From assembly GCF_045037415.1 (NCBI RefSeq), contig NZ_CP173438.1: a stretch of 64,000 nt of DNA. The stretch is one strand, 5' to 3'. The position numbers and the translations under genes are program-made. The notes beneath the pieces are model-generated. The model was not told the DNA's origin and did not search any database. It saw only the letters and a list, made by a program, of their open reading frames with translations. The first letter of the stretch is position 1. Each line of letters opens with the position of its first letter. Source of the stretch: Escherichia coli (GTDB lineage: Bacteria > Pseudomonadota > Gammaproteobacteria > Enterobacterales > Enterobacteriaceae). Shown here in pieces: positions 20,465 through 21,036 of this stretch.

Positions 20465-20675
20465 GGTGGGCGATTCTAATTAGCCAACAGGATTCGCGCC
20501 ACTCATTTTTCTATGCTTATATTTAGTTTTGCACCTTATTACTTCACTACATGATCACTTTATTGATGGTTATTAAACCAATCACCAGCAAGAAGTGAAA
20601 AAACTGTGAGTAAGCGGGTGATAAATGGTAAAAGTCATCTTGCTATAACAAGGCTTGCAGTGGAATAATGAGGCC

Positions 20676-21036
20676 GTTTCCGTGTCCATCCTTGTTAAAA
20701 CAAGAAATTTTACGGAATAACCCATTTTGCCCGACCGATCATCCACGCAGCAATGGCGTAAGACGTATTGATCTTTCAGGCAGTTAGCGGGCTGCGGGTT
20801 GCAGTCCTTACCGGTAGATGGAAATATTTCTGGAGAGTAATACCCAGTCTGTTTCTTTGATAATTGCGCTGTTTTTCCGCATGAAAAACGGGCAACCGAC
20901 ACTCTGCGCCTCTTTGAGCTGACGATAACCGTGAGGTTGGCGACGCGACTAGACACGAGGCCATCGGTTCACACCCGGAAAGGCGTTACTTTGCCCGCAG
21001 CTTAGTCGTCAATGTAAGAATAATGAGTAAGTTACG
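20676..21036 (+). promoter_or_regulatory. rne 5' untranslated leader (autoregulatory RNase E-responsive element); boundaries approximate
   Basis: About 570 bp non-coding gap between divergent rluC and rne; E. coli rne is known to carry a long structured 5' UTR. Left boundary from memory, not derivable from sequence alone. Confidence 0.55.

Follow-up and report, generated by a model that had tools for sequence, protein, structure and literature searches.

The antisense yceQ frame of Escherichia coli lies over the promoter and structured leader of rne and is very probably not a gene

The 572-bp spacer between the divergent genes rluC and rne is almost certainly the control region of rne, and the open reading frame (ORF) on its opposite strand, known as yceQ, is almost certainly fortuitous and not a gene. 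We reached this view from a 64,000-nt stretch of Escherichia coli DNA (the window, to which coordinates refer unless K-12 is named), from comparisons across Enterobacterales and from published evidence. The leader of rne, its autoregulation and the non-coding status of yceQ are already known. The biology is thus that of the textbook, and the value of the analysis lies in annotation hygiene. Both the Keio and the PEC gene set counted yceQ as essential, and codon-reassignment work handled it as an essential coding gene. Nucleotides that act as the promoter and leader of rne, not as codons, would explain both the essentiality and the recoding results, which argues for retiring the yceQ coding sequence from the K-12 record.

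In the mechanism we favor, a sigma-70 promoter, P1 (20640-20669), with a double DnaA box before it, would start transcription at 20676, and the resulting 361-nt leader would fold into conserved hairpins. According to published work, RNase E would bind the second hairpin, hp2 (20727-20783), and speed the decay of its own mRNA, and its synthesis would thereby track cellular RNase E activity. The minus-strand ORF would be a chance open frame over the rne promoter and leader. The yceQ sequence would then be conserved because selection acts on the DNA and on the plus-strand RNA, not on a protein, and its reported "essentiality" would stem from damage to rne expression. The features of the locus are as follows.

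19505-20464, minus strand: rluC, 23S rRNA pseudouridine synthase (319-aa ORF; K-12 name rluC)
20582-20956, minus strand: antisense ORF, 124 aa, GTG start (ORF list)
20604-20625, minus strand: double DnaA box, TTATCACCCgcTTACTCACA (sequence read directly and published ChIP-seq)
20640-20669, plus strand: rne promoter P1, TTGCTA, 18-nt spacer, TG-extended AATAAT (promoter scan)
20676-21036, plus strand: rne 5' untranslated leader, 361 nt (RF00040 over 20676-21012, and covariation)
20678-20717, plus strand: hp1, first leader hairpin (Rfam consensus mapped to E. coli; also in the minimum-energy fold)
20727-20783, plus strand: hp2, second hairpin (Rfam consensus helices 4-7; near-invariant core 20745-20766)
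20789-21003, plus strand: large branched domain, closed by long-range helices 20789-20799/20993-21003 and 20808-20814/20975-20981
20820-20856, 20865-20894 and 20895-20968, plus strand: inner hairpins of the branched domain (Rfam consensus helix mapping)
21021-21039, plus strand: ribosome-binding region and rne start codon, nearly invariant (alignment of leaders)
21037-24222, plus strand: rne, RNase E, 1061 aa (ORF and K-12 gene name)

The two genes diverge from starts at 20464 (rluC, minus strand) and 21037 (the ATG of rne, plus strand), and the distance of about 570 bp given in the initial annotation is exactly 572 bp. The 124-aa minus-strand ORF that it placed at 20582-20956 is likewise present as described. 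The 572-bp spacer was found in 5425 of 5426 complete E. coli genomes, in many of them at 100% identity, and 51 of 60 evenly spaced E. coli genomes were 100% identical over the 375 nt of the ORF (20582-20956). The region is too uniform for selection to be testable within the species. Five matches to this chromosomal region (20582-20956) sit on records labelled as plasmids. Beyond the species, rluC and rne were divergent neighbors in every Enterobacterales locus with enough flanking sequence, at a spacing of 455-780 bp.

At the rluC end of the spacer, two short conserved blocks lie just 5' of the rluC start (20505-20524 and 20465-20484; entropy 0.25-0.5, versus at least 1.5 between them); they are probably the promoter and ribosome-binding region of rluC. 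A palindromic REP-like element at 19401-19473 lies between yceF (K-12 name; the upstream gene) and the rluC stop codon. Neither strand reached the Rfam naRNA4 gathering score of 59.5, each scoring about 50 bits.

On the plus strand, 20676-21012 matched the Rfam family for the RNase E 5' UTR element (RF00040, rne5) with 260.1 bits (E 1.4e-81), above the gathering score of 180. The match was full-length (model positions 1-333 of 333) and ended 24 nt before the rne ATG. A 361-nt rne UTR and RNase E autoregulation are described in the literature, where hp2 is the RNase E sensor stem-loop of Diwa 2000 and Schuck 2009 as cited by later papers. Elsewhere in the window, the following Rfam matches scored above the gathering score:

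18647-18815, minus strand: SraB sRNA
42743-42792, plus strand: PyrC leader
51921-51963, plus strand: ES036 sRNA
62061-62152, plus strand: ES056 sRNA

A promoter scan of both strands over 20400-21100 returned P1 as the sole promoter-like site. It stops 7 nt before 20676, the first base of the Rfam match, and its position fits the published 361-nt leader starting at that base. A 555-bp region 5' of rne carrying P1-P4 is mentioned in PMC8361080. Upstream of P1, within the 3' part of the yceQ ORF, sits the double DnaA box. A DnaA ChIP-seq peak at K-12 coordinate 1,144,772, with a double box upstream of rne, has been reported (PMC11317965), and the block at 20604-20625 is conserved in Enterobacteriaceae (entropy 0.24-0.35), suggesting that RNase E synthesis and the initiation of replication are linked. 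In E. coli Z22-2, a viable hospital isolate, a 768-bp IS1, flanked by a 9-bp target duplication (AAAGTCATC), was found at 20631-20639, directly upstream of the P1 -35 hexamer. The insertion interrupts the yceQ ORF and leaves the DnaA double box cut off from the promoter.

The placement of the ORF with respect to these elements differs in part from the initial annotation, which had put it entirely inside the leader. Positions 20676-20956 do lie inside the leader made from P1, but the 3' end of the ORF, 20582-20675 (94 nt including the stop codon), is upstream of the P1 start and covers the -35 and -10 elements of P1 as well as the DnaA double box. To span the whole ORF, a transcript would have to start at one of the minor upstream promoters.

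Conservation of the leader structure was assessed by covariation. Enterobacterales loci (120) were fetched by an exact 22-mer from hp2 (20745-20766), and the Rfam consensus structure was projected onto an independent, sequence-only MAFFT alignment of 106 distinct Enterobacterales leaders. Across these 106 leaders, 87.9% of cells formed a standard pair, versus 33-44% in slid controls; 492 cells were changed on both sides, versus 141-190; and the covariation score was 0.193, versus at most 0.085. Changes on both sides were seen in 44 of 84 pairs, and for four of five covariation measures the observed value was higher than in all 500 shuffles. The long structured rne leader proposed in the initial annotation is thus borne out by both the RF00040 score and covariation, and the conserved hairpins for which it had suggested a search are kept by compensatory changes.

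In the outer helix of hp1, all five pairs showed compensatory changes, although the alignment is poor there (58-78% of cells paired). The lower stems of hp2 covaried (e.g., CG/AU/UA at columns 107-141) and its upper part was invariant; the invariance of the hp2 core is not usable as evidence, since the loci were fetched with that very 22-mer. In the branched domain, the long-range helix was 98.4% paired with four compensated pairs, and the inner hairpins were 91-100% paired with many compensatory changes. Toward the start codon, leader positions 337-364 were invariant or nearly so, with an entropy of 0.01-0.30 at 21025-21036.

Two kinds of local expansion were observed in the leaders of relatives. 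The loop of the hairpin matching 20865-20894 is about 18 nt longer in a clade of Rahnella, Rouxiella and Serratia sp. M24T3 (loci L040, L059, L065, L080, L083, L088, L110 and L117; A1 alignment columns 263-285). Separately, an element of about 125 nt lies in the rne leader of Citrobacter youngae (L038:567-1030), with an insertion point near window position 20816, at the junction after CCGGUA of the second long-range helix. The same element was seen in L041, L069, L113, L025, L051, L094, L044 and L096, and in two copies in L084. Its core is identical at 34 of 44 positions to the ERIC core formed by the ERIC1R and ERIC2 primer sequences, and its predicted fold is one long hairpin (-56.4 kcal/mol, z = -5.8). 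In four leaders that carry the element, the rne5 model matched across it nonetheless, with 201-226 bits. The element occurs patchily in Citrobacter, Pseudocitrobacter, Klebsiella indica, Kluyvera and an Enterobacter, and no paper in the literature library searched linked ERIC to rne.

The covariation also bears on which strand is selected. Many of the pairs are G-U on the plus strand (e.g., 97 G-U at columns 160-426) and would be C-A mismatches on the minus strand, which identifies the plus-strand RNA as the selected molecule. Single-sequence folding did not separate the strands: the minimum free energy of the leader was not better than that of shuffles (z = -0.66), and the antisense strand folded marginally better than shuffles (z = -1.91). 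The evidence for structure is therefore carried by covariation and the covariance model.

The folding of the minus strand is one of two observations in favor of a non-coding antisense RNA that modulates rne by transcriptional interference or RNase III cleavage of the duplex, as in a divergent "excludon"; the other is that, for E. coli RNA-seq data, ExcludonFinder includes the rne-yceQ pair in its list of divergent overlaps. That listing, however, presupposes the annotated yceQ and may be no more than a consequence of the long rne UTR. The pairing pattern, G-U pairs included, fits a plus-strand structure, and the promoter scan of 20400-21100 gave no minus-strand site from which such an RNA could start. 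A published sigma-factor SELEX peak near window position 20556 is downstream of the yceQ stop codon and points towards rluC. The orientation effects seen with CRISPRi and transposons (described below) are also fully explained by rne. We consider that an antisense RNA of this kind has a very slim prospect of being real.

K-12 yceQ (b1085, 321 nt, 106 aa, GTG start) is an exact match to window positions 20582-20902 on the minus strand, in keeping with the suggestion in the initial annotation that the ORF corresponds to this dubious gene; the 124-aa ORF keeps this frame and starts at a GTG further upstream. When the 572-bp spacer was shuffled 5000 times with dinucleotides preserved, 0.66% of the shuffles contained an ORF of 124 codons or more and 3.8% one of 106 codons or more. 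For a single region, a 124-codon ORF is thus nominally unusual, but a genome has thousands of non-coding and antisense stretches, and some of them are expected to carry such an ORF.

Codon-level tests used a comparison set of 108 Enterobacterales species for the flanking genes and the ORF, with pN/pS pooled against 14 Enterobacteriaceae. Entropy is given for codon positions 1/2/3.

rluC (coding control): entropy 0.34/0.17/1.19; pN/pS 0.065
rne: entropy 0.05/0.01/0.80; pN/pS 0
yceQ frame: entropy 0.87/0.84/0.93 (flat); pN/pS 0.82
Five control frames of the same DNA: pN/pS 0.62-1.56

The yceQ frame showed no third-position periodicity, and its pN/pS was within the range of the control frames. 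Its apparent dS was 0.1-0.3, versus 0.4-1.8 in the neighboring genes, a low value indicating that every position is constrained, as expected of a regulatory DNA or RNA element. The ORF was intact only in the four Escherichia representatives (4 of 4); frameshifting indels or premature stops were found in 104 of 104 other species, and the stop-to-stop window through the conserved motif ranged from 15 to 150 codons. The four Escherichia representatives differ by only 4-8 substitutions, so few that the intact frame has no statistical weight. Codon-level conservation across Enterobacteriaceae, the check proposed in the initial annotation, was absent, and its reading of the ORF as a possible by-product of leader sequence agrees with the flat entropy, the pN/pS, the broken frames outside Escherichia and the published lack of ribosome profiling reads.

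Searches for a protein family gave a similar picture. The ORF had no match in Pfam-A and none in NCBIfam at E values up to 1. In a large protein database, 32 related clusters were found (68-156 aa, with patchy coverage), and the precomputed Pfam column was empty ("-") for all 32 of these YceQ relatives. PGAP placed no annotation at the yceQ position in any of the 80 E. coli genome rows listed.

Published experiments address the same question from the side of function. In three conditions, ribosome profiling by Price et al. gave no reads for YceQ, and the transposon insertions they found in yceQ all had the orientation able to drive rne. Goodall et al. gave the same explanation, rne, for the apparent essentiality of yceQ in TraDIS data, and Rousset et al. 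found by CRISPRi that targeting yceQ was harmful only on the strand that blocks rne. The Salmonella counterpart of yceQ is annotated as a pseudogene, yet is under strong selection in Tn-seq. In synthetic-genome work, synonymous recoding of Ser at three yceQ codons was non-viable, which implies that the nucleotides matter and not the amino acids. From their spacing, we infer that these are yceQ codons 2, 7 and 15, in the structured leader (leader nt 222-224, 207-209 and 183-185, respectively); the reported spacing is 14 + 24 nt, versus 15 + 24 nt for these codons.

These observations have to be weighed against the possibility that yceQ is a real but young gene, confined to Escherichia, translated at a low level or only in certain conditions and overlapping the rne control region. 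Such a gene would be consistent with the frame being open in every Escherichia representative, with its being longer than 99.3% of spacer shuffles, with the AAGAGG motif found 7 nt upstream of the GTG at 20902 (an AAGAGG-N7-GTG arrangement) and with the coding sequence still held in the curated K-12 record. It is at odds with the absence of a coding signature by entropy or pN/pS, with the broken frame in all other genera and with the fact that PGAP no longer calls yceQ and family models do not match it. The promoter scan offers no minus-strand site in 20400-21100 to express it. The IS1 of Z22-2 splits the ORF in a viable strain, and in E. coli 300081, also viable, a 1-nt insertion at 20597 rewrites its C-terminus. 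The profiling, recoding and insertion data make an Escherichia-only YceQ protein very unlikely, and we give hardly any credence to the young-gene account as a whole.

More generally, an Escherichia-specific role for minus-strand transcription or translation over the leader, through either a young micro-protein or an antisense excludon, appears very improbable. If real, such a role would regulate RNase E synthesis on top of the feedback loop already known. Our preferred reading remains that the spacer serves rne, and that the yceQ frame is open by chance.

The locus can be compared with known systems at three levels. yceQ/b1085 is described in K-12 as a "DUF2655 domain-containing protein" and is identical in sequence to window positions 20582-20902 on the minus strand; the name implies a protein family, whereas the comparative and published evidence indicates that the ORF yields no protein. 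Other apparently essential features owe their transposon or CRISPRi effects, which depend on orientation, to an essential neighbor whose control region they overlap; examples are psrO, upstream of pnp, and rnc, upstream of era. At rne, in contrast, the overlapped element is neither a small RNA nor an upstream cistron but an antisense ORF over a promoter and structured leader. Finally, RF00040 rne5 (Jain & Belasco 1995; Diwa et al. 2000; Schuck et al. 2009) is the same in locus, strand, length and structure, with no notable difference, and the leader in the window is the type example of that family.
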